NCBI GenBank assembly: GCA_023251535.1
Contig: JAHEYP010000014.1
Location: forward strand, 11,726-75,725
Direction of reading: 5' to 3'
Origin: Bacteroidota bacterium
Lineage (GTDB): Bacteria > Bacteroidota > Bacteroidia > AKYH767-A > OLB10
DNA: 64,000 nucleotides
In this document: positions 6,929 through 57,318 of the stretch, in pieces
Layout of the letters: each line of letters starts with the position of its first letter
How positions within the stretch are numbered: position 1 is the stretch's first letter
Program-made: the position numbers and the translations under genes
Notes under the pieces: generated by a model
Told to the model about the DNA's origin: nothing
Seen by the model: only the letters and a program-made list of their open reading frames with translations
Database searches by the model: none

Positions 6929-7420
6929 TTAAGGTTGACTAAATAGCTTTACTTCACTTTGATCGTTGCATAAATCTAATAATTCAATATTACTTTTTTT
7001 TACTATCGGATGAATGTAATCGGCAGCAATATCACATAATGGCACTAACGTAAATCGTCGGTTGGCGATTTCAGGATGAGGAACGGTAAGATTTGTTGTA
7101 ATAATGACTTCCGTGTTGAAATATAAAATATCGAGGTCGATGGTTCTTGGGCCCCATTTCTCGTGCCTTACTCGCCCCAATTTTAATTCAGCTTCCAGTA
7201 AAATATTTAGCAGCGCTTCGGGAGAATGTGGCGTTGTGATTTTAATTACTTTATTCAGGAAGGAAGATTGATTGGTATTTCCCCAGGCTGCAGTTTCATA
7301 AACTTTTGATACTGCAGAAATTATACCTGCATTAGTTGCAATTAAGGCTTCTGCATCTAACAGCATTTTCATCCTGTCGCCAAGATTACTTCCCGATAAA
7401 ATGTAAGCAGTAGATTGCAT
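6929..7420 (-). CDS. folK: 2-amino-4-hydroxy-6-hydroxymethyldihydropteridine pyrophosphokinase (HPPK)
   Basis: AYILSGSNLGDR...GPRTIDLDIL motifs typical of HPPK; 2-nt gap to the deoxynucleoside kinase gene. Confidence 0.85.
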   Translation of the reverse strand: MQSTAYILSGSNLGDRMKMLLDAEALIATNAGIISAVSKVYETAAWGNTNQSSFLNKVIKITTPHSPEALLNILLEAELKLGRVRHEKWGPRTIDLDILYFNTEVIITTNLTVPHPEIANRRFTLVPLCDIAADYIHPIVKKSNIELLDLCNDQSEVKLFSQP

Positions 7421-7543
7421 AATGCAAAAGTAAGATTCGATTTCTTTTTTTAGATTTGTACAGCTGTTTATTTTAGCCTTCCAACAGTTAATGATATTAG
7501 TTTATTCATTTATAGCCATATTACTTATTAACATTCAAAGTAT

Positions 7544-8056
7544 TTGAAAAAGTCATTGTCGGGCATATTTTTGGTGATTCTCCTTCTTCAAGGAGGCGGA
7601 TTTATGCTGCTATTACTTTTTCAACAACAGGCACTTAAATCCGAAATTCATTCGAAGATGAATCGTGGTGAGGTTGATTTCGAACAGATCGTTTTATCAA
7701 AAGCCGATTATCAAAAAGCTTTGGTCGAAGAAGGGGAGATTCTTATTGATGGAAAATTGTTTGATATTCAAAGTGAAACCATCATTCATAATAAAATTGT
7801 TTTAAGTGTTGTTTTTGATGAGAAGGAAGATGATGTTGTAAATGAAATTAAAAGCTTCATTCGAAGGAATTGCAGAAGTAATAAGTCTCTTCCCGATACT
7901 AGTGCGCATTTGTTTTCGTTAAGTTTTATCGGCACTACATATGCTTATTTTGTTCCTCTTTCATTTTCTTGTGAATTATATTCTTTGAGAAGTAAAATAT
8001 TTTTCTCTTGTCCTTCTTCTGAGGTTTTTACTCCTCCACCTCAGTTAATCGCTTAA
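7544..8056 (+). CDS. Hypothetical protein with an N-terminal hydrophobic segment
   Basis: ORF only; lies upstream of the TonB-dependent receptor gene. Confidence 0.35.
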   Translation: MKKSLSGIFLVILLLQGGGFMLLLLFQQQALKSEIHSKMNRGEVDFEQIVLSKADYQKALVEEGEILIDGKLFDIQSETIIHNKIVLSVVFDEKEDDVVNEIKSFIRRNCRSNKSLPDTSAHLFSLSFIGTTYAYFVPLSFSCELYSLRSKIFFSCPSSEVFTPPPQLIA

Positions 8057-8121: not shown

Positions 8122-10344
8122 ATGAAAAAAATTACATTCTTAAGTTCTATATTACTTAGTTCTATGGCTTGTGCTTCTTATGCACAAACTGTAAATATCG
8201 ATACCACTGTGTCGAAAAAAGTCTCTTTAAAAGAGGTCGTTATTTCAGTGAACAAAACGGAAGAGTCGCGAAAGACGGTTTCTCAGGAGGTGAAAGTTTT
8301 AACTTCTTCTGATATTGAAAATTCTCATGCACAATCTACAGGCGATTTACTCGCTAAGCAAGGTCTGCAAGTGCAAATGAGTCAGCAGGGTGGAGGTAGT
8401 CCAACTTTACGCGGATTCGAAGCCAGTCGTATCGGATTAGTAATCGATGGTGTTCGTTTGAATAATTTAATTTATCGTGCTGGTCACTTGCAAGATATTA
8501 TTAAAACCGATAATAATTCCTTAGATCGCGTTGAGATTCTTTATGGACCTTCTTCTACTATCTATGGTAGTGATGCTTTGGGTGGAGTGATTCATTTATA
8601 CACTAAAAAGCCAATGCTCGCAGGAGCTAACGGAAAGGCTAATATGAAGTTAAATGTATTTACTCGATACGGTTCAGTAAATAATGAATCGACTTCTCAT
8701 CTCGATTTCAACTATGGAGGAAAAAAACTCGCATCAATGACTTCGTTTACTTATTCAACTTTCGATGATTTGATGGGAGGGAAAAACCAGAATCCTTTCT
8801 ACAATGGTTCTTATGGCGAACGTCCGTATTATGTTGAACATATCAATGGCGTAGATTCGTTAGTGAAAAATAGCGATCGTTATCTTCAAGTGGGAAGCGG
8901 ATATTCTCAATATGATTTAGTGGAGAAGTTATTGTTTCAACAAAATGAACATATCAGCCACGGATTGAATATTCAATATTCAAATTCTACTGATGTTCCT
9001 CGTTATGATCGTTTGACAGATCCAAAGGGTAGCGGATTGAATTCTGCTGAATGGTATTATGGTCCCCAAAGCCGTTTGTTAACTGCTTATGATCTCAATA
9101 TAAAAAATGAAGAATCGTTATTTCAGCAAATTCATTTCGGATTGAATTACCAAGCATTGGAAGAAAGTCGTCATAATAGAGGATTCGGAAGTAAAAACAG
9201 AAATAACAGAATCGAAAAAGTTGGAGTAGTGGGAGCGAATCTCGATTTGCAGCGTTCAACTAAAAACCATGTAATTCGTTTCGGACTCGATGCTCAGTTG
9301 AATAATTTAAAATCAACTGCGAACAAAGAGAACATCGAAGATGGATCAACAGTTGCTTTAGATACTCGTTATCCAGATGGTAAAAATAACATGAATAATT
9401 ATGCTGTTTATTTCTCTCATACATGGACGATCAACGATCAATTAACATTAACTGACGGAATTCGCGGAGGCTATTCAACTTTGCACTCAACTTTGGTTGA
9501 TACTGCATTGTTATTCCATTTGCCATATACTGATATCGAACAAAAAACTCCAGTAGTTTCAGGAAGCATCGGATTGATTCATTCTCCTTCTGATGATCTC
9601 AAATTATCGTTGTTATTATCAACAGGATTCAGAGTTCCTAATGTAGATGATATGTCGAAAATATTTGGATCAGCTCCAGGAATGGTTATCGTTCCGAATG
9701 TCGATTTAAAGCCTGAGAAAACTATCAACTATGAGTTAGGAATAACTAAAATCTTTAATGGTAATTCACGTTGGGAAAACACCATGTATTTCACTACTTT
9801 CAAAGATGTAGCTGTAGTTGATACATTTACATATAACGGAAGTGATTCATTGATGTATGACGGAACAATGAGTAGAGTATATGCTAATCAGAACAAAGAT
9901 AAAGCGTATATCTTCGGATTCTCATCGAACTTCATCAGTAAACTTGATGATCATTTTATGATGTCGTTGGGATTAAATTACACGTATGGAAGAGTGAAAA
10001 CAGATTCAACAGATGCACCACTCGATCATATCGCTCCATTCATGGCTCGCACGTCATTCAGCTATTCGAACAATAAATTCAATGCTGATTTCTTTATCAA
10101 TTTTAGCGGTGCTAAATTGTTAAAGAACTACTCTTTAGGCGGAGAAGATAATGAGCAATATGCTACTGATATGGGAATGCCGGCTTGGTTCACTTTAAAC
10201 TTAAGAGCAGGATATCAAATTTATAAAGGCATCTCAATTCAAGCGGGTGTCGATAATATTTTCGATCTTCAATACCGTACGTTTGCCAGCGGAATTAATG
10301 CTCCGGGAAGAAATGTATTTGTATCATTGAAAGGAACATTCTAA
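8122..10344 (+). CDS. TonB-dependent outer-membrane receptor (non-SusC type)
   Basis: Signal peptide; plug-domain motif DRVEILYGPSSTIYGSDALGGVIHLYTKKP; 22-strand barrel length; C-terminal Phe. Confidence 0.85.
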   Translation: MKKITFLSSILLSSMACASYAQTVNIDTTVSKKVSLKEVVISVNKTEESRKTVSQEVKVLTSSDIENSHAQSTGDLLAKQGLQVQMSQQGGGSPTLRGFEASRIGLVIDGVRLNNLIYRAGHLQDIIKTDNNSLDRVEILYGPSSTIYGSDALGGVIHLYTKKPMLAGANGKANMKLNVFTRYGSVNNESTSHLDFNYGGKKLASMTSFTYSTFDDLMGGKNQNPFYNGSYGERPYYVEHINGVDSLVKNSDRYLQVGSGYSQYDLVEKLLFQQNEHISHGLNIQYSNSTDVPRYDRLTDPKGSGLNSAEWYYGPQSRLLTAYDLNIKNEESLFQQIHFGLNYQALEESRHNRGFGSKNRNNRIEKVGVVGANLDLQRSTKNHVIRFGLDAQLNNLKSTANKENIEDGSTVALDTRYPDGKNNMNNYAVYFSHTWTINDQLTLTDGIRGGYSTLHSTLVDTALLFHLPYTDIEQKTPVVSGSIGLIHSPSDDLKLSLLLSTGFRVPNVDDMSKIFGSAPGMVIVPNVDLKPEKTINYELGITKIFNGNSRWENTMYFTTFKDVAVVDTFTYNGSDSLMYDGTMSRVYANQNKDKAYIFGFSSNFISKLDDHFMMSLGLNYTYGRVKTDSTDAPLDHIAPFMARTSFSYSNNKFNADFFINFSGAKLLKNYSLGGEDNEQYATDMGMPAWFTLNLRAGYQIYKGISIQAGVDNIFDLQYRTFASGINAPGRNVFVSLKGTF

Positions 10345-36130: not shown

Positions 36131-37480
36131 TTATTCTACAATTAGTTTTTGAGTGTATGTAGAATTTTCAGTTGTCGTTACTTTAACTAAATAAATTCCC
36201 GGCGATAAATGGCTAATATTTAACGTCGACTTTTCTTTGTTAGTTAAAGTGAAAGCTGATTGCAGTTTTCCCGTGATATCAAAAATGGCAGCTGACTGTA
36301 AATTCAATTTACTGCTGATATTTATCTCTTCTTGAGCAGGATTCGGGAATAGTTGGAAACTATTTTCTGCAGTAGCATTTTCTATTACTGATGTTGCAGA
36401 GTTTGAACGAATAGCAACTGCTTCTTTGCAATTGTCGAAGTTTCTAAACATATCAAAGTACTGCGCTCCGTTGAAGATGAATGGCAAATTACTAGTTACT
36501 AATCCTGTTACCATTGATACTCCAATCATGTTTGTTCCGTCGCTGTAATAGTATGTCATTGTGAAAGGATCGATGGCCGCTCCTCCGTTTAATACATATC
36601 CACCTTTTGATGCTGCAATTGGTGAAATGATAGTAACAGCGCCAGTCGATGGATTTATTTTTCCCAACTTAATTGTTGTTGAATCTACATGTGCAACTGA
36701 ATCACCCGGCACCCAAGGGCTAGGAGTATAGCTGATATGATTTGTTCTTACTAAACCATATAAAGCAGTGTCAGCGCAACTATAAGTGAAATTGTCGAAA
36801 TATTGATTTGTTACTGTTCCAATAGTGGCATTGGTATAGATGCTTCCATTATACATATCGAGTCCTATCAGATTTGATCCTGTAGAATAGTAATACACCA
36901 TTTGATATGGATCAATGGCACTTCCTGCCAATGCAAATCCTTGTCCAACTGATGAAGGTGAAATTTCTGTAATCACCCCTGTATTCGTATTGGCTTTCGC
37001 TAAATAAAGCGCCCCAACTGTCATCATTAATGTTGAATCGAAATAATTTCTTCTGGCAAGTCCGTACATAGCACTGTCAGAATTACAGAAACGGAAGTTG
37101 TCGAAGTAACTAGCGCCATTCGGATTACTTAATGTCGCTTGATTGATCAATTGTCCTGTGCTCAAATCAAGTGTATTCATCTTTGATGCACCAATGAAAA
37201 TATAGGTATTGTCATATGGATTTAATGCTGCTCCAGTAAGATTTATGGCATCGTTAAATCCTGTTGCACTAGCCGGTGTAACCACACCTGTAATGGTATT
37301 GTATAGTCCTAAGCGTATTGATGTAGAATCGTAAACCTGACTGATAATTGTAGAATCAAATGGGTTTACAACATACGAATAATAGTTCTGACGAGCTATG
37401 CCATAAATCGTATTGGCTGTTTGAGCCATTGCGAAATTTGCAGTAAGTAAGATTGACAGAGAGAGTAGGATTTTTTTCAT
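36131..37480 (-). CDS. T9SS-secreted hypothetical protein
   Basis: Signal peptide from the internal Met MKKILLSLSILL; C-terminal T9SS sorting domain (...GIYLVKVTTTENSTYTQKLIVE). Confidence 0.6.
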   Translation of the reverse strand: MKKILLSLSILLTANFAMAQTANTIYGIARQNYYSYVVNPFDSTIISQVYDSTSIRLGLYNTITGVVTPASATGFNDAINLTGAALNPYDNTYIFIGASKMNTLDLSTGQLINQATLSNPNGASYFDNFRFCNSDSAMYGLARRNYFDSTLMMTVGALYLAKANTNTGVITEISPSSVGQGFALAGSAIDPYQMVYYYSTGSNLIGLDMYNGSIYTNATIGTVTNQYFDNFTYSCADTALYGLVRTNHISYTPSPWVPGDSVAHVDSTTIKLGKINPSTGAVTIISPIAASKGGYVLNGGAAIDPFTMTYYYSDGTNMIGVSMVTGLVTSNLPFIFNGAQYFDMFRNFDNCKEAVAIRSNSATSVIENATAENSFQLFPNPAQEEINISSKLNLQSAAIFDITGKLQSAFTLTNKEKSTLNISHLSPGIYLVKVTTTENSTYTQKLIVE

Positions 37481-37605
37481 GGTGTTGATTTGGCTTATCA
37501 AATATAAAACAAAATGTTTTAACAAAAGGGAGAGGGAAAAGTTTTTTTGATGATAATATTTGAGATCGTCCCGGTTAAATTCGGTTTTGTGGCTATTTTC
37601 GCCCT

Positions 37606-38118: not shown

Positions 38119-38379
38119 TTGCTTATGCTAACCAATAACGATATCCTTAAGAAAATTCGTGTAGCCTTAGAGCTGCGTGACGACGATATTATTGAGATTT
38201 TAAAATTGAATGATTTCGAAATTACGAAGAGTGAGTTGAACGCTTTATTTCGAAAAGAAGATCATCCGAATTATGTGCCTTGCGGCGATCAGTTGCTAAG
38301 GAATTTTTTAAACGGACTCATTACCTATAAAAGAGGGCCAAAGCCTGATTCAGCAGCAAAAAAAAGAGGTGATTTATAA
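38119..38379 (+). CDS. DUF1456 (YehS-like) protein
   Basis: Duplicated NNDILKKIRVAL-type repeats. Confidence 0.6.
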   Translation: MLMLTNNDILKKIRVALELRDDDIIEILKLNDFEITKSELNALFRKEDHPNYVPCGDQLLRNFLNGLITYKRGPKPDSAAKKRGDL

Positions 38380-38395
38380 TCACCTCTTTTTTTGT
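38361..38395. terminator. Bidirectional terminator
   Basis: aaaaaaaagaggtgatttataatcacctcttttttt. Confidence 0.6.
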
Positions 38396-38404
38396 ATTTA
38401 TTGT

Positions 38405-38926
38405 TTATTTTTCGTCAGCACTCGGGCCATATAATCCCGGTACCGCTACATCATTAAGACGTAAATAAACCGAAAGTTGTCCACGGTGGTGAATAATATG
38501 ATTGAATACCATCGTTCTCAATACAACTCCTTTCGGTAATGTAAAGATAACATGCTCTCCGTTTCTTAATGTCCACATTTTACCGTATTCTTCGTCAGAA
38601 GCTCCGCTAAAAGCAGCCTTCGCTTGCTGATACATCTTTTCGTGTAGAGCTAATAACTCTTCAGTATTGTGAACTTCTGGAGTAGGAATATAATTAACAG
38701 AGAAATCAAGTTGATCTTGATTTATGGTTACAGCAGCCCATCCCCATAATTCGGCAACGTGACGAGCAAGGCGCTCCATCGACATCGATTTCTCATGCGG
38801 TTTGTAAGCAGGATCATTAAACGGTACTCGTTCTAGTATTCTTTTCGAACTTGCGAATTCATGCTCAAGTTCTGCTAGGTAGGATTGACTTAGTGACATA
38901 GTGATATGTTTTATTTGTGCAAACAT
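38405..38926 (-). CDS. DinB/YfiT-like (DinB_2) family protein; last gene of the metal-efflux operon
   Basis: Conserved-His helix bundle pattern (...HIIHHRGQLSVYL); 11-nt gap to the MFP gene; alternative start at 38899. Confidence 0.55.
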   Translation of the reverse strand: MFAQIKHITMSLSQSYLAELEHEFASSKRILERVPFNDPAYKPHEKSMSMERLARHVAELWGWAAVTINQDQLDFSVNYIPTPEVHNTEELLALHEKMYQQAKAAFSGASDEEYGKMWTLRNGEHVIFTLPKGVVLRTMVFNHIIHHRGQLSVYLRLNDVAVPGLYGPSADEK

Positions 38927-40072: not shown

Positions 40073-43000
40073 TTAGTTGTTTGTATAGAAAAGAATTTCG
40101 TTTAACGATTCACGTTGATTTGTCCAATTGTCGATTGTAGTTAAATAGGTTCGCAGAATTAACTCACCGGTAAGTACCCATTCGGTATAGTTGATTTCTC
40201 CTTCGTTGAGTTTATTCTTTAATCCGTTCTGTAATTGTCCAACTAATAGTAAGTCGGTACTAAGCGACCTTTCCAATATCGCTGTGCTAATTCGATATTT
40301 CGACAGCGCAATATTGATGTCATTGTCGATTTTTATACTCGATTTGGTTTTGTTCAGTTCATTGATTCGCAATCTGGCTTTCGATTTCTTTAAACCACTT
40401 CCGTAGTTGAAGCAAATCAACGGAATTTGTATTCCCGCATCAAATGATTGGTAGTTGATATTTGATAGGTAAGAAGAGGAAGTGCCTTCGCTGTTAAATG
40501 ACTGTAACGAATATCCTGCTCTAAACTTGGGGAAGAATTTAGCTTTTTCGATTTGGATAGCTCTGTTTAGAATTTCACTTTCTAATGTTATATGTTTTAT
40601 CGATAACTGTTCGGATTTTGAAATTGAGGATGTATCAATTTTCTCTATTGATAGTGATTTTAACATCGTAGGCTTAATGTAGTAATCAACTTGTATCAAT
40701 GATCTTAAATTACTTCCAACTTCAAATATTTGCTGGTTATTGTTTTGTAATTCGTTTAACAGATTATTTCTCCTTAGTTTCATTTGCAGTAATTCTCCAA
40801 CTCCGATTTCTCCTGCGTCGAACATTTGCTGGAATCTTTCTTGTGCTTTTGCGAATAAGCTATCCGTTTGAGTGAGTAAGGTTGCTTTGTATTGTAATGC
40901 GCTTAATTCATCGTAAAGATTTCGCACTGATTTGCTGATTTCTTTTTCGAATAATTTTCGCTCGTTTTCATTCTGTAAAAGCTTTATGTTGTTTTGCTTT
41001 TTAGCGGCAATAATTTCAGGGATATTTGGAATGTTTTGAATGAAGGTTATCCTGCTATCATTTGTGTTTCCATTCAAGTTTCCGAAGGATGTCGATATAT
41101 CTAATGGGTCAAATTTTGAATTTGATCTTGATTCGGAATTCATGATTTCAGCATTTAATGAAAACGCTTTTAATGCGCTGTTGTTTTCAATTGCAAGCCG
41201 AACGGCTTCTTCTTTTGAAACTACTTTTATTTCTTGTGCTTCTGCAGTGAAACCGATCATTAATGAAATTGCAATAATCCCTGCCTTGCTGAAATTCAAA
41301 TTCCTTATTTTAGGTTTTCTTTGTTCGAACATCACATAAAGTATTGGTAATACAATTAAGGTTAGTAGCGTTGCAGTTATTAATCCCCCAATCACCACCG
41401 TTGCTAATGGTCGTTGGACTTCAGCACCCGCACCATTGCTTAATGCCATTGGCAAAAATCCTAATGATGCTACACAGGCAGTCATTAATACAGGACGAAG
41501 TCGAATAGATGTTCCTTTTAGTACCAATTGCTTTGGATCTTTCATGCCTTCACGTTTTAATAAATTGAATTCGGTTATGAGTACAATTCCATTGAGTACT
41601 GCGACACCAAACAGAGCAATGAACCCTATACCTGCTGATATACTGAATGGCATATCTCGTAGCCATAAAGCGAATATTCCTCCCATTGCCGACAAAGGAA
41701 TAGCACTAAAGATTAATAGTCCTTGTTTAATTTTGCCGAAAGCAAAATAGAGCATTAGCAAAATTAGAAGAAGAGCAATTGGTACAGCAATCATTAATCG
41801 TTGCCTTGCTTGAATTAGATTTTCAAATTGTCCTCCGTAGGTAATGTAATACCCAGTCGGGAATTTAATTTGATTTTCTGTTTTTTCTTTTAATTCTTTT
41901 ACGATACTCTCGACATCTCTTCCTCTAACATTAAATCCGATTGTTATTCTTCGGTGAGCATCTTCCCTTTGAATTTGATTTGGACCAACTTCAATATTTA
42001 CATCTGCAACTTCTCTCAAAGGGATTATTATTCCATTGTTTTTAACGATTGGTAACGATCCGATATCTTCTGTTTTTGTTCGCGAAGTTGAATCGAGACG
42101 GATAGCAATGTCATAACGTTCTTCGTGCTCATAAACTGACCCTGCTAAATATCCACTGTATGAAGTAGCTATCGCTTTGTTAACTTCTTTTACTGTTATG
42201 TTGTGCTTTATTAATCCATCGCGGTTTACTCTAATAACTAATTGTGGTAATCCTGTGGTCGATTCAACATATAAATCGCGTGCTCCATCAACAGTATTGA
42301 TTATTCTTCCCAGATCATCAGCATATTTACTTAAGCTATCCAAGTCATCGCCGAATATTTTACAAACTACATCTTGGCGTGCGCCCGTCATAAGTTCATT
42401 AAATCGCATTTGCACTGGATATTGAAATCCTGTTGTTACACCCGGCAAATCTTCAACAGCTCTACTCATTTTCTCAGCTAATTCGTCGAAAGTTTTAGCG
42501 CTGGTCCATTCTGATTTGTCTTTCAGAATCACCATCATGTCGCTGGCTTCAATGGGCATAGGGTCGGTTGGAATTTCTCCACTTCCAATTTTAGTTACCA
42601 CTTTTTCGACTTCCGGAAATTTAGACTTTAATATTTCAGCAGTTTTTTGTGTTGCTTGTATAGTTGTGGTTAATGAACTTCCTGTAAGTGTTCTGGTGTC
42701 GACAGCAAAGTCTCCCTCTTCTAATTCAGGAATGAATTCTCCTCCAAGTTGTGATAGTACAACAACCGATAAAACAAATAGAATAATTGACGCTGCTACA
42801 ATTTTCCTAGGTATTAGAAGTGCTTTTTCTAAGATTTTTTTGAATTTGCGTTCAATGGCGATAATTATTCTTTCTGATAAATTACTGCCTTTTTTTATTT
42901 TGCGACTTAATACCAATGAACTCATCATTGGGATATAAGTCAATGAAAGTAGAAATGCACCTAAGATGGCAAACGATACTGTTTGTGCCATAGGCTTAAA

Positions 43001-44428
43001 CATTTTCCCTTCAATTCCTTCAAGTGATAAAATTGGGAGGTATACAATTAGAATAATGATTTGTCCGAATACCGCTGCATTCATCATTTTTCCTGATGAA
43101 GTACGAACTTCTCCGTCCATTTGTAGTTTGCTTACTTCGGTTAATTCAGCGAATTGTTTATTATGGTGAAGTCGATGTAAGATGGCTTCAACAATAATTA
43201 CAGCACCATCAACAATTAGTCCGAAGTCGAGTGCTCCTAAACTCATTAAGTTTCCGCTCACACCAAAGACATTCATTAGAATTATCGCGAACAACATTGA
43301 AAGAGGAATTACTGAAGCTACCAATAATCCTGCTCTGAAATTGCCTAAGAATAATACTAAAATCAATACTACAATTAGTGCCCCTTCAATCAAGTTTCGC
43401 TCTACAGTGGAAATGGCATTGTTCACCATTTTAGTTCTGTCGAGGAATGCTTCGACTTCGACTCCCTCGGGTAAAGTTTTGTTGATTTCTGCGATTTTTT
43501 CTTTTACTTTTTTAATAACTTTAGATGAGTTTTCGCCCTTTAACATCATTACAACTGCTCCGCATACCTCACTTTTATTGTTGTATAGTACTGCTCCATA
43601 TCGAACCGCAGAACCAATTTTCACTTCAGCCACATCTTTAACCTTTACCGAAGTTCCATTGCTGGTTTGCTTAATTGGAATGGATTCAATTTCTTGTTGA
43701 TTTTTTACAAGTCCCTCACTGCGTATGTATAAAACACTTGGACCCTTTTCTATATATGCACCTCCTGTATTTTGATTGTTTTGTTCAACCGCATCAATCA
43801 CATCTTGCAATGAAACTTGAAGAGATTTGAGCTTTTCAGGATTAATGGCTATTTCGAATTGCTTTAATTTACCCCCGAAAGAGCTGACATCGGCAACACC
43901 TTCGGTTCCGAGTAATTGTTTACGGATAATCCAATCTTGAATACTTCGAAGTTCCTGCAATGAATATTTGTTTTCATATCCTTTAGCAGGTTTTACTACG
44001 TATTGATAAATTTCTCCTAGACCAGTTGTTACTGGACCTAATTCAGGTCTTCCTACTTCAGGAGGAATTATTGAGGCGACTTGTTGGAGACGTTCGTTTA
44101 CTTGAGTCCTAGCCCAGTAAATATCAGTTTCGTCTTTAAATACTATCGTAACAACTGATAATCCGAAGCGAGAAAACGATCGTTGTTCGATGATACCCGG
44201 TATGTTTCGAGTTACTTGCTCGATAGGAGCAGTGATGATTCTTTCTATATCGGCAGCGCCATAAGAAGGAGATGATGTAATAATTGTTACCTGATTATTG
44301 GTAATATCGGGAACGGCATCGATAGGAAGTTGAGTAGCATTATAAACTCCGCCCACTATAAGTAGTAGAACAAATAAGCCTACAATCAACTTGTTTTTTA
44401 TCGATAGCCGGATGATTTTTTCCAGCAT
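40073..44428 (-). CDS. CzcA/CusA-family heavy-metal efflux RND pump fused in frame to a TolC-like outer-membrane factor (1451 aa)
   Basis: First ~1040 aa match the full 12-TM CzcA architecture and end ...VLPILYVMFEQRK; then a signal-peptide-like hydrophobic segment (NFSKAGIIAISLMIGFTAEAQ) and a ~400-aa OMF-like alpha/beta domain. Confidence 0.8.
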   Translation of the reverse strand: MLEKIIRLSIKNKLIVGLFVLLLIVGGVYNATQLPIDAVPDITNNQVTIITSSPSYGAADIERIITAPIEQVTRNIPGIIEQRSFSRFGLSVVTIVFKDETDIYWARTQVNERLQQVASIIPPEVGRPELGPVTTGLGEIYQYVVKPAKGYENKYSLQELRSIQDWIIRKQLLGTEGVADVSSFGGKLKQFEIAINPEKLKSLQVSLQDVIDAVEQNNQNTGGAYIEKGPSVLYIRSEGLVKNQQEIESIPIKQTSNGTSVKVKDVAEVKIGSAVRYGAVLYNNKSEVCGAVVMMLKGENSSKVIKKVKEKIAEINKTLPEGVEVEAFLDRTKMVNNAISTVERNLIEGALIVVLILVLFLGNFRAGLLVASVIPLSMLFAIILMNVFGVSGNLMSLGALDFGLIVDGAVIIVEAILHRLHHNKQFAELTEVSKLQMDGEVRTSSGKMMNAAVFGQIIILIVYLPILSLEGIEGKMFKPMAQTVSFAILGAFLLSLTYIPMMSSLVLSRKIKKGSNLSERIIIAIERKFKKILEKALLIPRKIVAASIILFVLSVVVLSQLGGEFIPELEEGDFAVDTRTLTGSSLTTTIQATQKTAEILKSKFPEVEKVVTKIGSGEIPTDPMPIEASDMMVILKDKSEWTSAKTFDELAEKMSRAVEDLPGVTTGFQYPVQMRFNELMTGARQDVVCKIFGDDLDSLSKYADDLGRIINTVDGARDLYVESTTGLPQLVIRVNRDGLIKHNITVKEVNKAIATSYSGYLAGSVYEHEERYDIAIRLDSTSRTKTEDIGSLPIVKNNGIIIPLREVADVNIEVGPNQIQREDAHRRITIGFNVRGRDVESIVKELKEKTENQIKFPTGYYITYGGQFENLIQARQRLMIAVPIALLLILLMLYFAFGKIKQGLLIFSAIPLSAMGGIFALWLRDMPFSISAGIGFIALFGVAVLNGIVLITEFNLLKREGMKDPKQLVLKGTSIRLRPVLMTACVASLGFLPMALSNGAGAEVQRPLATVVIGGLITATLLTLIVLPILYVMFEQRKPKIRNLNFSKAGIIAISLMIGFTAEAQEIKVVSKEEAVRLAIENNSALKAFSLNAEIMNSESRSNSKFDPLDISTSFGNLNGNTNDSRITFIQNIPNIPEIIAAKKQNNIKLLQNENERKLFEKEISKSVRNLYDELSALQYKATLLTQTDSLFAKAQERFQQMFDAGEIGVGELLQMKLRRNNLLNELQNNNQQIFEVGSNLRSLIQVDYYIKPTMLKSLSIEKIDTSSISKSEQLSIKHITLESEILNRAIQIEKAKFFPKFRAGYSLQSFNSEGTSSSYLSNINYQSFDAGIQIPLICFNYGSGLKKSKARLRINELNKTKSSIKIDNDINIALSKYRISTAILERSLSTDLLLVGQLQNGLKNKLNEGEINYTEWVLTGELILRTYLTTIDNWTNQRESLNEILFYTNN

Positions 44429-44502: not shown

Positions 44503-44880
44503 TTATGCACGCGGCGGTTGCCAAACGGTATTCGGAATATGAATAGTATTATGTTCCTGATAATCGAAAAACAGGGTGGTTTCTATGTCATTGAAAACAA
44601 AACCGGGGAATTCTATTTTTTCTGTATTAGCAATTGGAGCAGATGCGAAATTGTACTCGAAACTTTTAAATGGAAGCTTCATGTCTTCATGTGCATCGCT
44701 ATCGTAGTTCTCTAATTCACGGTAATGGAGGAACAAAAACTCTGCAATGCCCAATTCTGGTTCAGTAATTCTATGTTCGTTAAAATGATGCGTAAGTGCC
44801 GGCAGCTTCATTAGCTGATACAATCCCGCTTGAGGGAAAGCTACAGCTAACAATAAAAATAAGGCTATGGCACGCTTCAT
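44503..44880 (-). CDS. Small secreted His/Asp/Glu-rich hypothetical protein at the head of the efflux operon
   Basis: Signal peptide MKRAIALFLLLAVAFPQAG; HHFNEH and HYRELENYDSDAHEDM segments. Confidence 0.45.
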   Translation of the reverse strand: MKRAIALFLLLAVAFPQAGLYQLMKLPALTHHFNEHRITEPELGIAEFLFLHYRELENYDSDAHEDMKLPFKSFEYNFASAPIANTEKIEFPGFVFNDIETTLFFDYQEHNTIHIPNTVWQPPRA

Positions 44881-44953: not shown

Positions 44954-45652
44954 TTATTTTTTACTTGACAGATGAATGTAAAATGTATGATCCAAACATT
45001 TTCCGTTTGTGTCTGAATGTATTTTAACCTTATGTTGTCCGCTTTCGTCAAGGACATATTCTTCCATTTCTTTCAACTCGGGCACGGGCTTGTCAGATTT
45101 TATAACCCATACTTCTGTATTCGTTTTCACGTGGTCTTTGTAATAAGATTTGTAGGTAATACAATCATTCGGACTATAACAAGTTGTATTTAGAAACTCA
45201 TTTCCCAAGCTATCCAATACTATACGTTGTTCAACGGTAGGAATTGAATCTCCTTTAAAACTCCAATAAACAATCCATCCCCTTGGCATTGTATCCTTAA
45301 TACGCATTAAAGCCATGCTAAAACTACTATCGGCATTAAAAAGACTATCGGCAAACCACTCTTGATTTGGTTGGTAATACACTTTGTTGAACTTCTTTAG
45401 CTTCCCGTTTTCGTCAAAAGATGTCTTTTTATACAACTTTCCCGAAGAATTATAATAGTAATAAAGTGTAGTGGGAGGGAAGTCGCGCCTTACTTTCTTT
45501 ACAAGCTGTTCTTCTCTGTTAAAGTAACTCACCGAAACAGTATCACATACCTTTTGATCACAATCGCATTTTAGCTCATAAGTGATTTTTTGGGCATTGC
45601 TTTGGAATATACCCAATGTGCAAAATAGAAGAAGTAAAAGAATTCGTTTCAT
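44954..45652 (-). CDS. Hypothetical secreted protein
   Basis: Signal peptide; CDCDQKVC cysteine cluster; no family recognised. Confidence 0.45.
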   Translation of the reverse strand: MKRILLLLLFCTLGIFQSNAQKITYELKCDCDQKVCDTVSVSYFNREEQLVKKVRRDFPPTTLYYYYNSSGKLYKKTSFDENGKLKKFNKVYYQPNQEWFADSLFNADSSFSMALMRIKDTMPRGWIVYWSFKGDSIPTVEQRIVLDSLGNEFLNTTCYSPNDCITYKSYYKDHVKTNTEVWVIKSDKPVPELKEMEEYVLDESGQHKVKIHSDTNGKCLDHTFYIHLSSKK

Positions 45653-45764: not shown

Positions 45765-46193
45765 ATGGAGAATTTAACCGATATTAAATGTCCGAAGTGC
45801 CAGTCCTATAGGGTCATTAAAAGTGGAATTGTTAATAGTAAACAGCGCTTTTGTTGTAAGAATTGCAGTTATTATTTTACGGTTGATAAGCTGGGCAAGC
45901 GTATCGATTCATATTATGTGACCAAAGCTCTGCAGTTGTATATCGAAGGACTTAGCTCTCGAGAAATTGAACGTTTGTTAGGTATTAGTCATGTTTCTGT
46001 AATGAATTGGGTGAAGCAATATGGTTTGAAACGTCCGGTGAATAGTCAGTATCATCCAAGCTATAAAGTTTTGAATCATTCCGAGTTGGTGGAGTATATG
46101 AGTAAAAAGGAGAATCTTAGTGGTGCAGGATCGGTAATTACTGAGTTGGGTGATAAGTTTATGTTGATTAAATGGGAGCGGTTTAGATCCTGA
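45765..46193 (+). mobile_element. Truncated IS1-family transposase remnant (InsA-like zinc finger + HTH; no DDE/InsB part)
   Basis: CPKCQSYRVIKSG...FCCKNCSYYF zinc ribbon followed by HTH LSSREIERLLGISHVSVMNWV; the ORF ends after 142 aa and no catalytic ORF follows. Confidence 0.55.
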
Positions 46194-54883: not shown

Positions 54884-55400
54884 TTATTGAATCGCAACTC
54901 GACTTTGATATAATCCTTTGTCGGTTGTTACATTGATAATGTAAATGCCTTTAGCGAACAAACTCTTGTCGAAGCTAACTGTTGATTCTTGATTCTGTAT
55001 TTCTGTAATTAAACTTCCGTTGCTGTTGAAAATTTGTGCCGATTCAATTTTGGTTGAGTTCATGGCAACTATTTCAATGCTGTTTGCAAGATTCTTAACA
55101 ACTAGATTATTGCTGTTGCTGATTTCTTGTATTCCAACGCCATTAACAATTACCGGTGCAGATGTCGCCGGACAACCAATCGAGTCTACAATTGTAACAG
55201 TGTATGTTCCGTTTTGTGTTGCAGTATATGATTGATTTGTTCCTGTTACTATCGGCTGACCATTATAGTTCCATTGGTAAGTTGTTGCTGAAGTTGACGT
55301 TAATACGGCACCGTTAGTAGTAATAATAGGAGTTAATGATCCTTGATAGAAAGGAACGTTAGTTGATAGTGATCCTGATGTTAATGTTCCCGCATTTCCA
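54884..55400. repeat. Near-identical (>95%) direct repeat, copy 1 (3' half of the LamG/T9SS gene)
   Basis: Aligns at offset +1220 to 56104-56620 with only scattered SNPs. Confidence 0.8.
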
Positions 55401-56098
55401 CTTGTTGTTTGATCAGGAATATTAGTTCCGCTTGCTACATTAAAGTTCCAATACCCCACTAACCCCGGTGATGTTGGTGAAATATGACGATTGTATCCTG
55501 CTAAAATTTCAGAACGTGATAAAGCTCGATCCCAAATTCTGGCTTCATCAATTTGTCCACTGAAAAATCTACTTGGTGTTCCACTTCCTTCCGACCATCT
55601 TCCTATACATAATGGAAATGCTGTTGATGGAACTATCGATCCTCTAAATGCAGTAGCCCCAACTTCAATTGTGTTTAGGTAGATTTTTAAACTGTCGCCG
55701 TCATAAACTCCCGCAACATGTTGCCAAGTGTTTAGCGAAAGTGTGTTAATAGGACTTATTATTTCTTTCCATGTTGCCACTAATCCTGAACTGTCGGTGC
55801 CTGCAATTGCAAATGATAATTGCCCCATTCCACCACATCTAATTACATAACCTTGCTTTCCTTGGCTAGAACTGTGTTTGCATATAATGGAATTTGTAAA
55901 CGACGAAGTCCCGAAAGTTGATGGTTTAATCCATGCTTCTAAGGTTACTGTACTATCAAGTGATAAATTGGTGCTATTTACAAAGGAAACATAGCCTGAA
56001 GTTCCACCCAATAAAATCGATTTTGTATTGGCAGTGCATTGTGCATTACAATTTACATAAATTGAGCATAACAATACTAAGGTTGCAAGATGTTTCAT
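54884..56098 (-). CDS. T9SS-secreted LamG (concanavalin-like) domain protein, downstream copy of a tandem paralog pair
   Basis: Signal peptide; LamG-like jelly-roll domain; Ig-like domain; T9SS C-terminal domain (...GIYIINVTTDKGLYQSRVAIQ). Confidence 0.65.
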   Translation of the reverse strand: MKHLATLVLLCSIYVNCNAQCTANTKSILLGGTSGYVSFVNSTNLSLDSTVTLEAWIKPSTFGTSSFTNSIICKHSSSQGKQGYVIRCGGMGQLSFAIAGTDSSGLVATWKEIISPINTLSLNTWQHVAGVYDGDSLKIYLNTIEVGATAFRGSIVPSTAFPLCIGRWSEGSGTPSRFFSGQIDEARIWDRALSRSEILAGYNRHISPTSPGLVGYWNFNVASGTNIPDQTTSGNAGTLTSGSLSTNVPFYQGSLTPIITTNGAVLTSTSATTYQWNYNGQPIVTGTNQSYTATQNGTYTVTIVDSIGCPATSAPVIVNGVGIQEISNSNNLVVKNLANSIEIVAMNSTKIESAQIFNSNGSLITEIQNQESTVSFDKSLFAKGIYIINVTTDKGLYQSRVAIQ

Positions 56099-56103
56099 AG
56101 TTC

Positions 56104-56620
56104 TTATTGTATCGCAACACGACTTTGATATAATCCTTTGTCGGTTGTTACATTGATAATGTAAATTCCTTTAGCGAATTGGCTTTTATTGAAGCTAACT
56201 GTTGATTCTTGATTCTGTATTTCTGCAATTAAACTTCCGTTGCTGTTGAAAATTTGTGCCGATTCAATTTTGGTTGAGTTCATGGCAACTATTTCAATGC
56301 TGTTTGAAAGATTCTTAACGACTAGATTATTGCTGTTGTTGATTTCTTGTATTCCAACGCCATTAACAATTACCGGTGCAGATGTCGCCGGACAACCAAT
56401 CGAGTCTACAATTGTAACAGTGTATGTTCCGTTTTGCGTTGCAGTATATGATTGATTTGTTCCAGTTACAATCGGCTGACCATTATAGTTCCATTGGTAA
56501 GTTGTTGCTGAAGTTGACGTTAATACGGCACCGTTAGTAGAAATAATAGGAGTTAAAGATCCTTGAAAGAATGGTACATTCGTTGAAAGTGATCCTGATG
56601 TTAATGTTCCCGCATTTCCA
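56104..56620. repeat. Near-identical direct repeat, copy 2
   Basis: See copy 1; the 5' halves (LamG domains) diverge to roughly 65-70% identity. Confidence 0.8.
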
Positions 56621-57318
56621 CTCGATGTTTGATCAGGTAAACTTGTTCCTGCTGCAATATTGAAGTTCCAATACCCTGCTAATCCAGGTGAAGTAGGAGA
56701 GATATGACGATTGTATCCTGCAGCTAGTTCAGTTTGCGATACAGCTCTGTTCCATACTCTTACTTCATCAATTTGTCCACTAAAATATCTGCTGGCACCA
56801 ACTCCAGGATCCGACAACCTGCCAATAACGGCCGGGAATGATGTTGATGGTACAATAGATCCTTTGAATGCATATGCGGTAACTTGAATTGTATTTACAA
56901 ATAATCGGGCTGTATCACCATCATATGTAGCTGCAACATGTTGCCATGTATTTAATGTTAATGCACTTGTAGGGCTAACTACATTCTGCCAACTAGTTGG
57001 TGTGCCGGTACTATCAAGACCTGCAAAATTAAAGGATAGCTGTCCGCTGGCACCACATCTTAAAACATAACCCATTTCTCCTTGCGTCCAACTGTGTTTG
57101 CAGAATATGGAATTGGTGTAGTTGTTGGCTCCAAATGCTGTTGGTTTTATCCAAGCTTCCACCGTGATAGCACTGTCAATTTGTAAATTGCTATCTGTCG
57201 TAAATGACACATAGCTACTCGTACCATTTAATACAATTGATTTGGTGTTTGCTGTACATTGGCTGTATGCTTGTGTGCCAAATCCTAAGGTTAAAATAAG
57301 CAGTAGAATTCTTTTCAT
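56104..57318 (-). CDS. T9SS-secreted LamG domain protein, upstream copy of the tandem paralog pair
   Basis: Same architecture as the 54884-56098 gene; C-terminal ~170 aa nearly identical; 5-nt intergenic spacer. Confidence 0.65.
   Translation of the reverse strand: MKRILLLILTLGFGTQAYSQCTANTKSIVLNGTSSYVSFTTDSNLQIDSAITVEAWIKPTAFGANNYTNSIFCKHSWTQGEMGYVLRCGASGQLSFNFAGLDSTGTPTSWQNVVSPTSALTLNTWQHVAATYDGDTARLFVNTIQVTAYAFKGSIVPSTSFPAVIGRLSDPGVGASRYFSGQIDEVRVWNRAVSQTELAAGYNRHISPTSPGLAGYWNFNIAAGTSLPDQTSSGNAGTLTSGSLSTNVPFFQGSLTPIISTNGAVLTSTSATTYQWNYNGQPIVTGTNQSYTATQNGTYTVTIVDSIGCPATSAPVIVNGVGIQEINNSNNLVVKNLSNSIEIVAMNSTKIESAQIFNSNGSLIAEIQNQESTVSFNKSQFAKGIYIINVTTDKGLYQSRVAIQ

Follow-up and report, generated by a model that had tools for sequence, protein, structure and literature searches.

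A CzcA-type efflux pump and an outer-membrane channel encoded as one chain in Bacteroidota, with a predicted internal signal peptide between them

We examined a 64,000-nucleotide stretch of DNA from a Bacteroidota bacterium (contig JAHEYP010000014.1, positions 11,726 to 75,725; hereafter the window) in which one open reading frame (ORF) joins a CzcA-type pump of the resistance-nodulation-division (RND) kind to an outer-membrane factor (OMF), with a short signal-peptide-like segment between them (Table 1). The initial annotation of this DNA had described a single in-frame gene holding a complete CzcA-type pump and an OMF domain of about 400 residues, and each of these elements was recovered: the frame runs uninterrupted from ATG to stop over 1451 aa, and its two halves match the expected families. 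Pfam ACR_tran (PF00873) covers aa 5-1034 with model positions 1-1020 of 1021 (E 2e-279), NCBIfam TIGR00914 (CusA/CzcA) covers aa 1-1043 with 1158.6 bits against a cut-off of 701.45, and the C-terminal part, which is closer to 390 aa, has two stretches that match Pfam OEP (PF02321), beginning at aa 1073 (74 bits, with a cut-off of 22; E 1.8e-20). The pump belongs to the heavy-metal efflux (HME) RND family, as its full-length family match exceeds the curated cut-off. In HME-RND pumps, the motif DFG-DGA-VEN in transmembrane helix 4 (TM4) is the proton-relay signature of the divalent-cation type. The fused protein retains the D, D and E of this motif and has A in place of the last N, and the resulting form, DFG-DGA-VEA, was found in 112 of 121 family members. 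Because its TM4 motif matches the HME-RND signature in this way, divalent cations are suggested as the predicted substrate.

The C-terminal part has the fold of a complete OMF protomer. An AlphaFold2 (AF2) monomer model of aa 1019-1451 (predicted local distance difference test, pLDDT, 83; predicted template-modelling score, pTM, 0.73) contains a short N-terminal strand, an ascending helix, a first hairpin, a 69-residue descending helix and a 36-residue ascending helix, followed by an equatorial strand, a helix, a second hairpin, and helices of 69 and 35 residues. The two beta-hairpins, two long and two half-length helices and equatorial segment that characterize an OMF protomer are thus all present in the model. 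Foldseek comparison with the PDB returned TOprJ1, SilC, CusC, OprM and TolC, with template-modelling scores of ~0.7 over ~400 columns and E-values down to 8e-16. Sequence comparison shows that the OMF part is evolving at a much higher rate than the pump. Identity to the corresponding parts of other fused proteins is ~22% for the OMF, compared with ~69% for CzcA, and against a relative with 88% protein identity the ratio of non-synonymous to synonymous codon changes is 95:124 for the OMF and 70:429 for CzcA. Pump, channel and the adaptor encoded beside them, a membrane fusion protein (MFP), are each an ordinary representative of a known family (HME-RND, OMF and MFP, respectively).

A gene of this form could in principle arise from a sequencing, assembly or frameshift error, or from a pseudogene that merges two genes, and the initial annotation had asked that such an artefact be excluded. 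Short A-runs do occur in the junction DNA; otherwise only prior caution speaks for this explanation. Against it, the best 120 homologues in a collection of 5.8 billion proteins are, every one, 1445-1504 aa long and 54-93% identical to the query, and most carry both Pfam domains. We also scanned genomes, one per species, with the whole fused protein as query; 597 of the 600 listed matched stretches were confirmed as relatives, and the locus counts that follow refer to the best 80 of these at least 597 related stretches in species-representative genomes. A continuous fused frame is present in 76 of the 80 loci (~95%), so that the orthologues are far from uniformly encoding two separate genes. 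The fused loci belong to Chitinophagaceae, Pedobacter, Flavobacterium, Chryseobacterium, Saprospiraceae, Crocinitomicaceae, Dyadobacter, Ohtaekwangia, Tangfeifania and one metagenome-assembled genome (MAG) labelled Chlorobiota, in keeping with the earlier statement that proteins of such size occur in Flavobacteria; they are common both there and in the kin of that group. Several come from isolate genomes, and Chitinophaga pinensis and Flavobacterium glycines are among the species that have the fusion. The frame is common to hundreds of independent assemblies as well as to isolates. Among the matches listed, the closest genome match shows 55% identity across the full-length protein and ~70% across its CzcA part.

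The relative with 88% protein identity, recovered in two independent sequencing runs (L081 and L082), has a colinear gene of 4356 nucleotides (nt) in the same synteny. Over 35 junction codons, the window and this relative differ at 5 first, 4 second and 18 third positions (18 of 27 differences at the third). Of the altered codons, 14 are synonymous and 7 non-synonymous, and there are no insertions or deletions. This third-position bias and the lack of indels argue that the junction is translated in the fused frame under purifying selection. Homologue lengths, locus counts, the colinear relative and the codon pattern all indicate that the fusion is not an artefact, an explanation to which we assign almost no weight.

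The junction reads ...LPILYVMF-EQRKPKIRNLNFSK-AGIIAISLMIGFTAEA-QEIKVVSKEEAVRLAIENN... in the translated window frame. The hydrophobic segment singled out in the initial annotation, NFSKAGIIAISLMIGFTAEAQ, lies at aa 1045-1065 and was described there as signal-peptide-like, a description that is borne out by a basic loop, a short hydrophobic core and an A-x-A↓Q site, where the arrow marks the predicted cut. The hydrophobic stretch spans only 14 residues (aa 1049-1062) and is followed by AEA↓Q. To define the site pattern, 110 distinct homologous junctions were aligned. Position -1 is A in 89, S in 12, G in 6 and T in 2 (109 of 110 junctions). At position -3, where the window protein has A, the residue is small or aliphatic. 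Position +1 is Gln in 108 of the 110; in the other two the alignment is shifted and the sequence still reads xQ. Column entropy falls to 0.15 bits at this Gln, compared with ~3 bits in the flanks. Ahead of the site, the loop that follows the last pump helix (TM12) is 10-33 aa long in the homologues, variable in sequence and basic (net charge +4 on average); the uncharged stretch has a mean length of 16 aa. The segment at aa 1035-1065 therefore combines a basic n-region, an h-region of 7-15 residues and small residues at -3 and -1, a pattern conserved in 109-110 of the 110 junctions, with Gln at +1. Apart from its position within the chain, it has all the features of a cleavable Sec/signal-peptidase-I signal peptide, and it is signal-peptide-like without being a classical signal peptide.

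The Gln at +1 points to a specific form of signal-peptidase-I site. According to the Q-rule of Bacteroidetes, cleavage by signal peptidase I leaves most of its substrates with Gln at the N-terminus, and this Gln is then cyclised to pyroglutamate (PMC5837995, PMC10653852). Within the window, ~14 N-terminal signal peptides share an ending of the xxA↓Q type, for example ...SYA↓QT, ...SNA↓QK and ...FAMA↓QT. The predicted secreted proteins whose signal peptides end in a small residue followed by Gln include those at 8122, 14666, 15746 and 46349 on the plus strand and at 45652, 37480, 14566, 58719, 19496 and 10883 on the minus strand. Judged by these secreted proteins, the organism itself follows the Q-rule, and the junction pattern is, as read from the alignment, a signal-peptidase-I site of the Q-rule form. 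It shares with the Q-rule signal peptides already described (PMC5837995, PMC10653852) the basic n-region, the short h-region, the small residues at -3 and -1 and the Gln at +1; the supplements of one of these papers contain no CzcA or OMF entry.

The initial annotation had gone further and proposed that the segment persists as a 13th transmembrane helix, so that pump and channel remain covalently joined in the working machine. Part of this proposal is sound, in that the orientation of the segment, with its positive loop inside and its C-terminal end outside, fits a role in carrying the chain back into the periplasm. This in-to-out topology and the single ORF are what a permanent tether would look like, and retention of the fusion in 76 of 80 loci implies that something favours keeping the parts together. 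However, a stretch of 14 residues, or of 16 on average, is short for a stable transmembrane helix, and a near-invariant A-x-A↓Q amid freely varying flanks would be pointless in a mere anchor. The geometry of the channel also weighs against a tether. In OMFs of known structure, a barrel of ~40 Å is joined to a periplasmic tunnel of ~100 Å, and the N-termini lie at the equatorial domain (PMC8277102). In the AF2 model the first OMF strand (aa 1067-1070) begins two residues past Q1065 and pairs with the strand after the half-length ascending helix, which places it, in the model, at the equatorial belt, a level remote from the inner membrane once a pump is assembled. By analogy with known structures, a two-residue linker would be unable to hold the start of the OMF at the inner membrane while its barrel sits in the outer membrane; because the fold starts so soon after the site and at the equatorial level, there would be no room for a tether across the ~100 Å periplasmic part. 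Neither the permanent 13th helix nor the covalently tethered machine is supported, also in view of the separate signal peptides of the split relatives described below, which function without tether or 13th helix, and we consider a permanent tether very unlikely.

Comparison with these split relatives allows the predicted cut site to be placed against ordinary N-terminal signal peptides. In 4 of the 80 loci (L048, L058, L064 and L074) pump and channel are separate genes, with the order small ORF, czcA, omf, mfp maintained. The junctions of L048, L058 and L064 were followed through to the OMF start. In these three, the pump ends soon after TM12, lacking the extra hydrophobic segment, and the OMF starts from a separate ATG with an ordinary N-terminal signal peptide, which ends in ...TKAQ before IPITLKAAIDTALKNN (L048), ...LVAQ before TPITLKAAIDTALKNN (L058) and ...LKAQ before TPINLHTAINTALENN (L064). 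KAQ followed by I or T, or VAQ followed by T, thus directly precedes the common start I-T/N-L..AI.TAL.NN, and the cut site of the split OMFs is, by this alignment, homologous in position to A1064↓Q1065. The likeness extends beyond the site. In L064 and L048, the split orthologues share the synteny and OMF start motif of the fused loci, with CzcA parts up to 92% identical to those of fused neighbours, and differ from them in having a stop codon and an intergenic spacer, a separate ATG for the OMF and a pump devoid of the C-terminal hydrophobic segment. The CzcA part of split L064 (Epilithonimonas mollis DSM 18016) is 92% identical to that of fused L032 (Chryseobacterium ureilyticum), while L048 (a Ferruginibacter MAG) and L058 (a Chitinophagales MAG) group apart from L064 by nearest-neighbour identities; for this reason, the fused and split states appear to have been interconverted at least twice, over short evolutionary distances. 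Such repeated interconversion argues that the fused and split forms give the same mature products. A search with the OMF part alone, in which the fused proteins fall into few 50% clusters, additionally returned ~65 stand-alone OMF relatives of ~400 aa, each with a signal peptide followed by the domain. As a separate observation, L058 carries a small extra gene (MAAYNFKETTLYKKAFSLAMEIFEK...) at ~7190..7640, between czcA and the OMF gene, whose product resembles the "23S rRNA intervening sequence" kind of four-helix-bundle protein, and L074 also has inserted DNA between the two genes.

A different way to obtain a free channel would be internal initiation, in which the OMF is translated separately from a start within the n-region and the fused chain arises by read-through as a by-product. 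An in-frame Met does lie in the n-region of 25 of the 56 fused junctions that were parsed at the DNA level, and in fused L032 this Met aligns with the true OMF start of split L064. The only candidate internal start in the window is a TTG (L1044) preceded by AGGA, within AGGAAT and TTG at 41298..41309 (-). Neither is kept in the relative with 88% identity, where they read AGAAAT and TTA, and Bacteroidetes are generally held to be independent of Shine-Dalgarno sites. Furthermore, the n-region contains no in-frame ATG in 31 of the 56 junctions and none of ATG, GTG and TTG in 15 of the 56, and since the pump has no stop codon of its own, the full chain with its cleavage site would be made in any case. 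On this codon evidence, the OMF must come from the fused chain. Internal initiation may add OMF in lineages that keep the Met, and some lineages might also begin translation in the n-region; it cannot, from the codon counts, be the general route, and as an account of the fused genes it is unlikely.

We therefore favour a reading in which the gene probably specifies a polyprotein that comprises two of the three components of a CzcCBA-like heavy-metal RND pump and that signal peptidase would separate. The ribosome would make one chain, whose 12-helix CzcA part would insert in the inner membrane so that its C-terminus lies on the cytoplasmic side, as in the established topology of RND pumps. The basic loop of aa 1035-1048 would stay inside according to the positive-inside rule, and aa 1049-1062 would engage Sec as an internal signal peptide and thread the OMF part into the periplasm. 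Signal peptidase I would then cut after A-E-A(1064), releasing an OMF that starts with Gln1065, on which glutaminyl cyclase would form pyroglutamate, by analogy with other exported proteins of Bacteroidetes. The free OMF would enter the outer membrane as a trimer and assemble with CzcA and the lipoprotein adaptor encoded 4 nt downstream into a CzcCBA-like pump. CzcA would keep a short extra C-terminal helix after the cut, which is likely dispensable because the split relatives do without it. What the fusion offers in return is a matter of speculation; a likely benefit would be that pump and channel are made in a strict 1:1 ratio and exported at the same place.

Several points weigh against this polyprotein reading. 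The cut itself is read from sequence. The signal is not N-terminal, in contrast to the Q-rule signal peptides it otherwise resembles: it begins ~1035 residues into a chain of 1451, behind a 12-helix domain. Signal peptides normally stand at the N-terminus, and efficient cleavage after 12 transmembrane helices has been documented in few bacterial cases. The n-region methionines, present in ~45% of the parsed fused loci, leave room for a second source of OMF in some lineages. It is also conceivable, though in our judgement quite unlikely, that the chain is left uncut or is cut late or partly, so that the OMF would remain physically attached to its own pump while it is exported and assembled. The outcome would be either a cis-acting hand-over of the channel to the pump made with it or a permanently tethered machine unlike any solved geometry of a tripartite pump; in a milder form, the retained signal peptide would serve as a functional 13th helix of CzcA after cleavage.

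The genes around the fused ORF are consistent in kind with a tripartite efflux locus. The adaptor gene begins 4 nt past the stop codon of the fused ORF, and its product resembles CzcB and CusB (TIGR01730, 115 bits against a cut-off of 94.9; HlyD_D23, E 8.5e-28); nearly all of the 80 loci have an MFP gene immediately downstream. Directly upstream of the pump gene is a 125-aa ORF with the invariant motifs TE..QLLKLP.L..H..EH, HY and D.D...DM.LPFK and a C-terminal IWQPP. It has no match in Pfam or NCBIfam, a homologue occupies the same position in ~70 of the 80 loci, and its product may be a fourth part of the pump with a metal-binding or accessory role. On the other side, a DinB-family gene (38405..38926, minus strand) follows the adaptor gene on the same strand after an 11-nt gap. 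It is kept in L081 and L082 and missing from all 80 more distant loci, and for the latter reason is probably a local passenger of the operon. Just past it lies a perfect palindromic hairpin, likely a two-way terminator that closes the co-oriented string of pump, MFP and DinB genes. Apart from this hairpin, scans across the locus for Sigma-70-type promoters and for terminators gave results at chance level, with Bacteroidetes-type promoters lying outside the models of the scan.

Table 1. Features of the fused pump-channel gene and its neighbours in the window (positions from the first letter of the window; ↓, predicted cut).
Feature	Position	Strand	Description
Fused ORF: CzcA-type RND pump, predicted internal signal peptide, OMF	40073..44428	-	1451 aa + stop, ATG to stop, uninterrupted
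RND pump domain, aa 1-1034	41327..44428	-	Extends through TM12 (...LPILYVMF); Pfam ACR_tran, TIGR00914
TM4 motif DFGLIVDGAVIIVEA, aa 401-415	43184..43228	-	DFG-DGA-VE(N) type, N replaced by A
n-region / cytoplasmic loop EQRKPKIRNLNFSK, aa 1035-1048	41285..41326	-	Net charge +4
h- and c-regions AGIIAISLMIGFTAEA of predicted internal signal peptide, aa 1049-1064	41237..41284	-	Conserved xxA↓Q pattern
Predicted signal-peptidase-I cut, after A1064	between 41237 and 41236	-	
Predicted mature OMF, aa 1065-1451 (387 aa), Gln first	40076..41236	-	Pfam OEP (two stretches), AF2 model, Foldseek
Periplasmic adaptor (CzcB/CusB-like MFP), 376 aa	38938..40068	-	Lipoprotein-type N-terminus ..FISC|G
Small ORF, 125 aa, directly upstream of pump gene	44503..44880	-	N-terminal hydrophobic helix
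Perfect 16-bp palindromic hairpin, just past DinB gene	38359..38393		Flanked by A-run and T-run

Further features of the window were noted in passing. A 142-aa ORF at 45765..46193 (+), divergent from the pump gene string, gave weak matches to an InsA-type zinc ribbon and a helix-turn-helix, below or near the Pfam cut-offs, and may be a transposase remnant or a regulator. Tandem paralogues of 404 aa lie at 54884..56098 (-) and 56104..57318 (-), with near-identical starts after their signal peptides, ..NA↓QCTANTKSI.. and ..YS↓QCTANTKSI..; the L081 contig has a Laminin_G_3 protein of 404 aa near its pump locus. A protein with a Por_Secre_tail domain of the type IX secretion system (T9SS) is encoded at 36131..37525, and the GC content of the window is ~36%.

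The locus can be compared with known systems at two levels, that of the pump and that of its processing. With CzcCBA and CusCBA it shares a full-length TIGR00914 pump with the TM4 D-D-E, a CzcB/CusB-like adaptor and a TolC-fold OMF near SilC and CusC. It differs from them in gene order, which in the window is small ORF, A, C, B rather than the known C, B, A; in the encoding of A and C by a single ORF; in the shortness (387 aa when mature) and great divergence of the OMF; and in the presence of the extra conserved 125-aa partner. Furthermore, CusC and OprM are lipoproteins, whereas the OMF of the window lacks a lipobox Cys and is, by its sequence, a predicted substrate of signal peptidase I.

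With regard to processing, the nearest known bacterial parallel is the FbcH cytochrome b/c1 precursor of Bradyrhizobium japonicum, a polyprotein that is processed by signal peptidase. As in that type of precursor, a multi-pass protein, an internal signal peptide and an exported partner in the same complex are encoded by one ORF; the differences are that the second product of the window gene would go to the outer membrane and that its processing is predicted. To our knowledge, this is possibly the sole case of an internal signal whose two products would reside in different membranes. Precursors of viral glycoproteins are likewise cleaved at internal signal peptides (PMC7926653). In the limited literature searched, we found no description of an RND-OMF fusion or of the processing of such a fusion.

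Our findings leave the general picture of how RND pumps work unchanged. If the proposed processing is correct, the fused genes are a rare instance of an internal signal peptide at work in bacteria and would offer a simple test case for the action of signal peptidase I at sites that are not N-terminal, as well as a natural system in which to study the stoichiometry of tripartite pumps and the control of their co-assembly. In hundreds of genomes an OMF goes unnoticed behind the annotation "CusA/CzcA family transporter", and OMF counts and inventories of efflux systems in this phylum are therefore biased. If the polyprotein reading holds, many Bacteroidota would make an inner-membrane pump and an outer-membrane channel as one chain, to be parted by the general signal peptidase.

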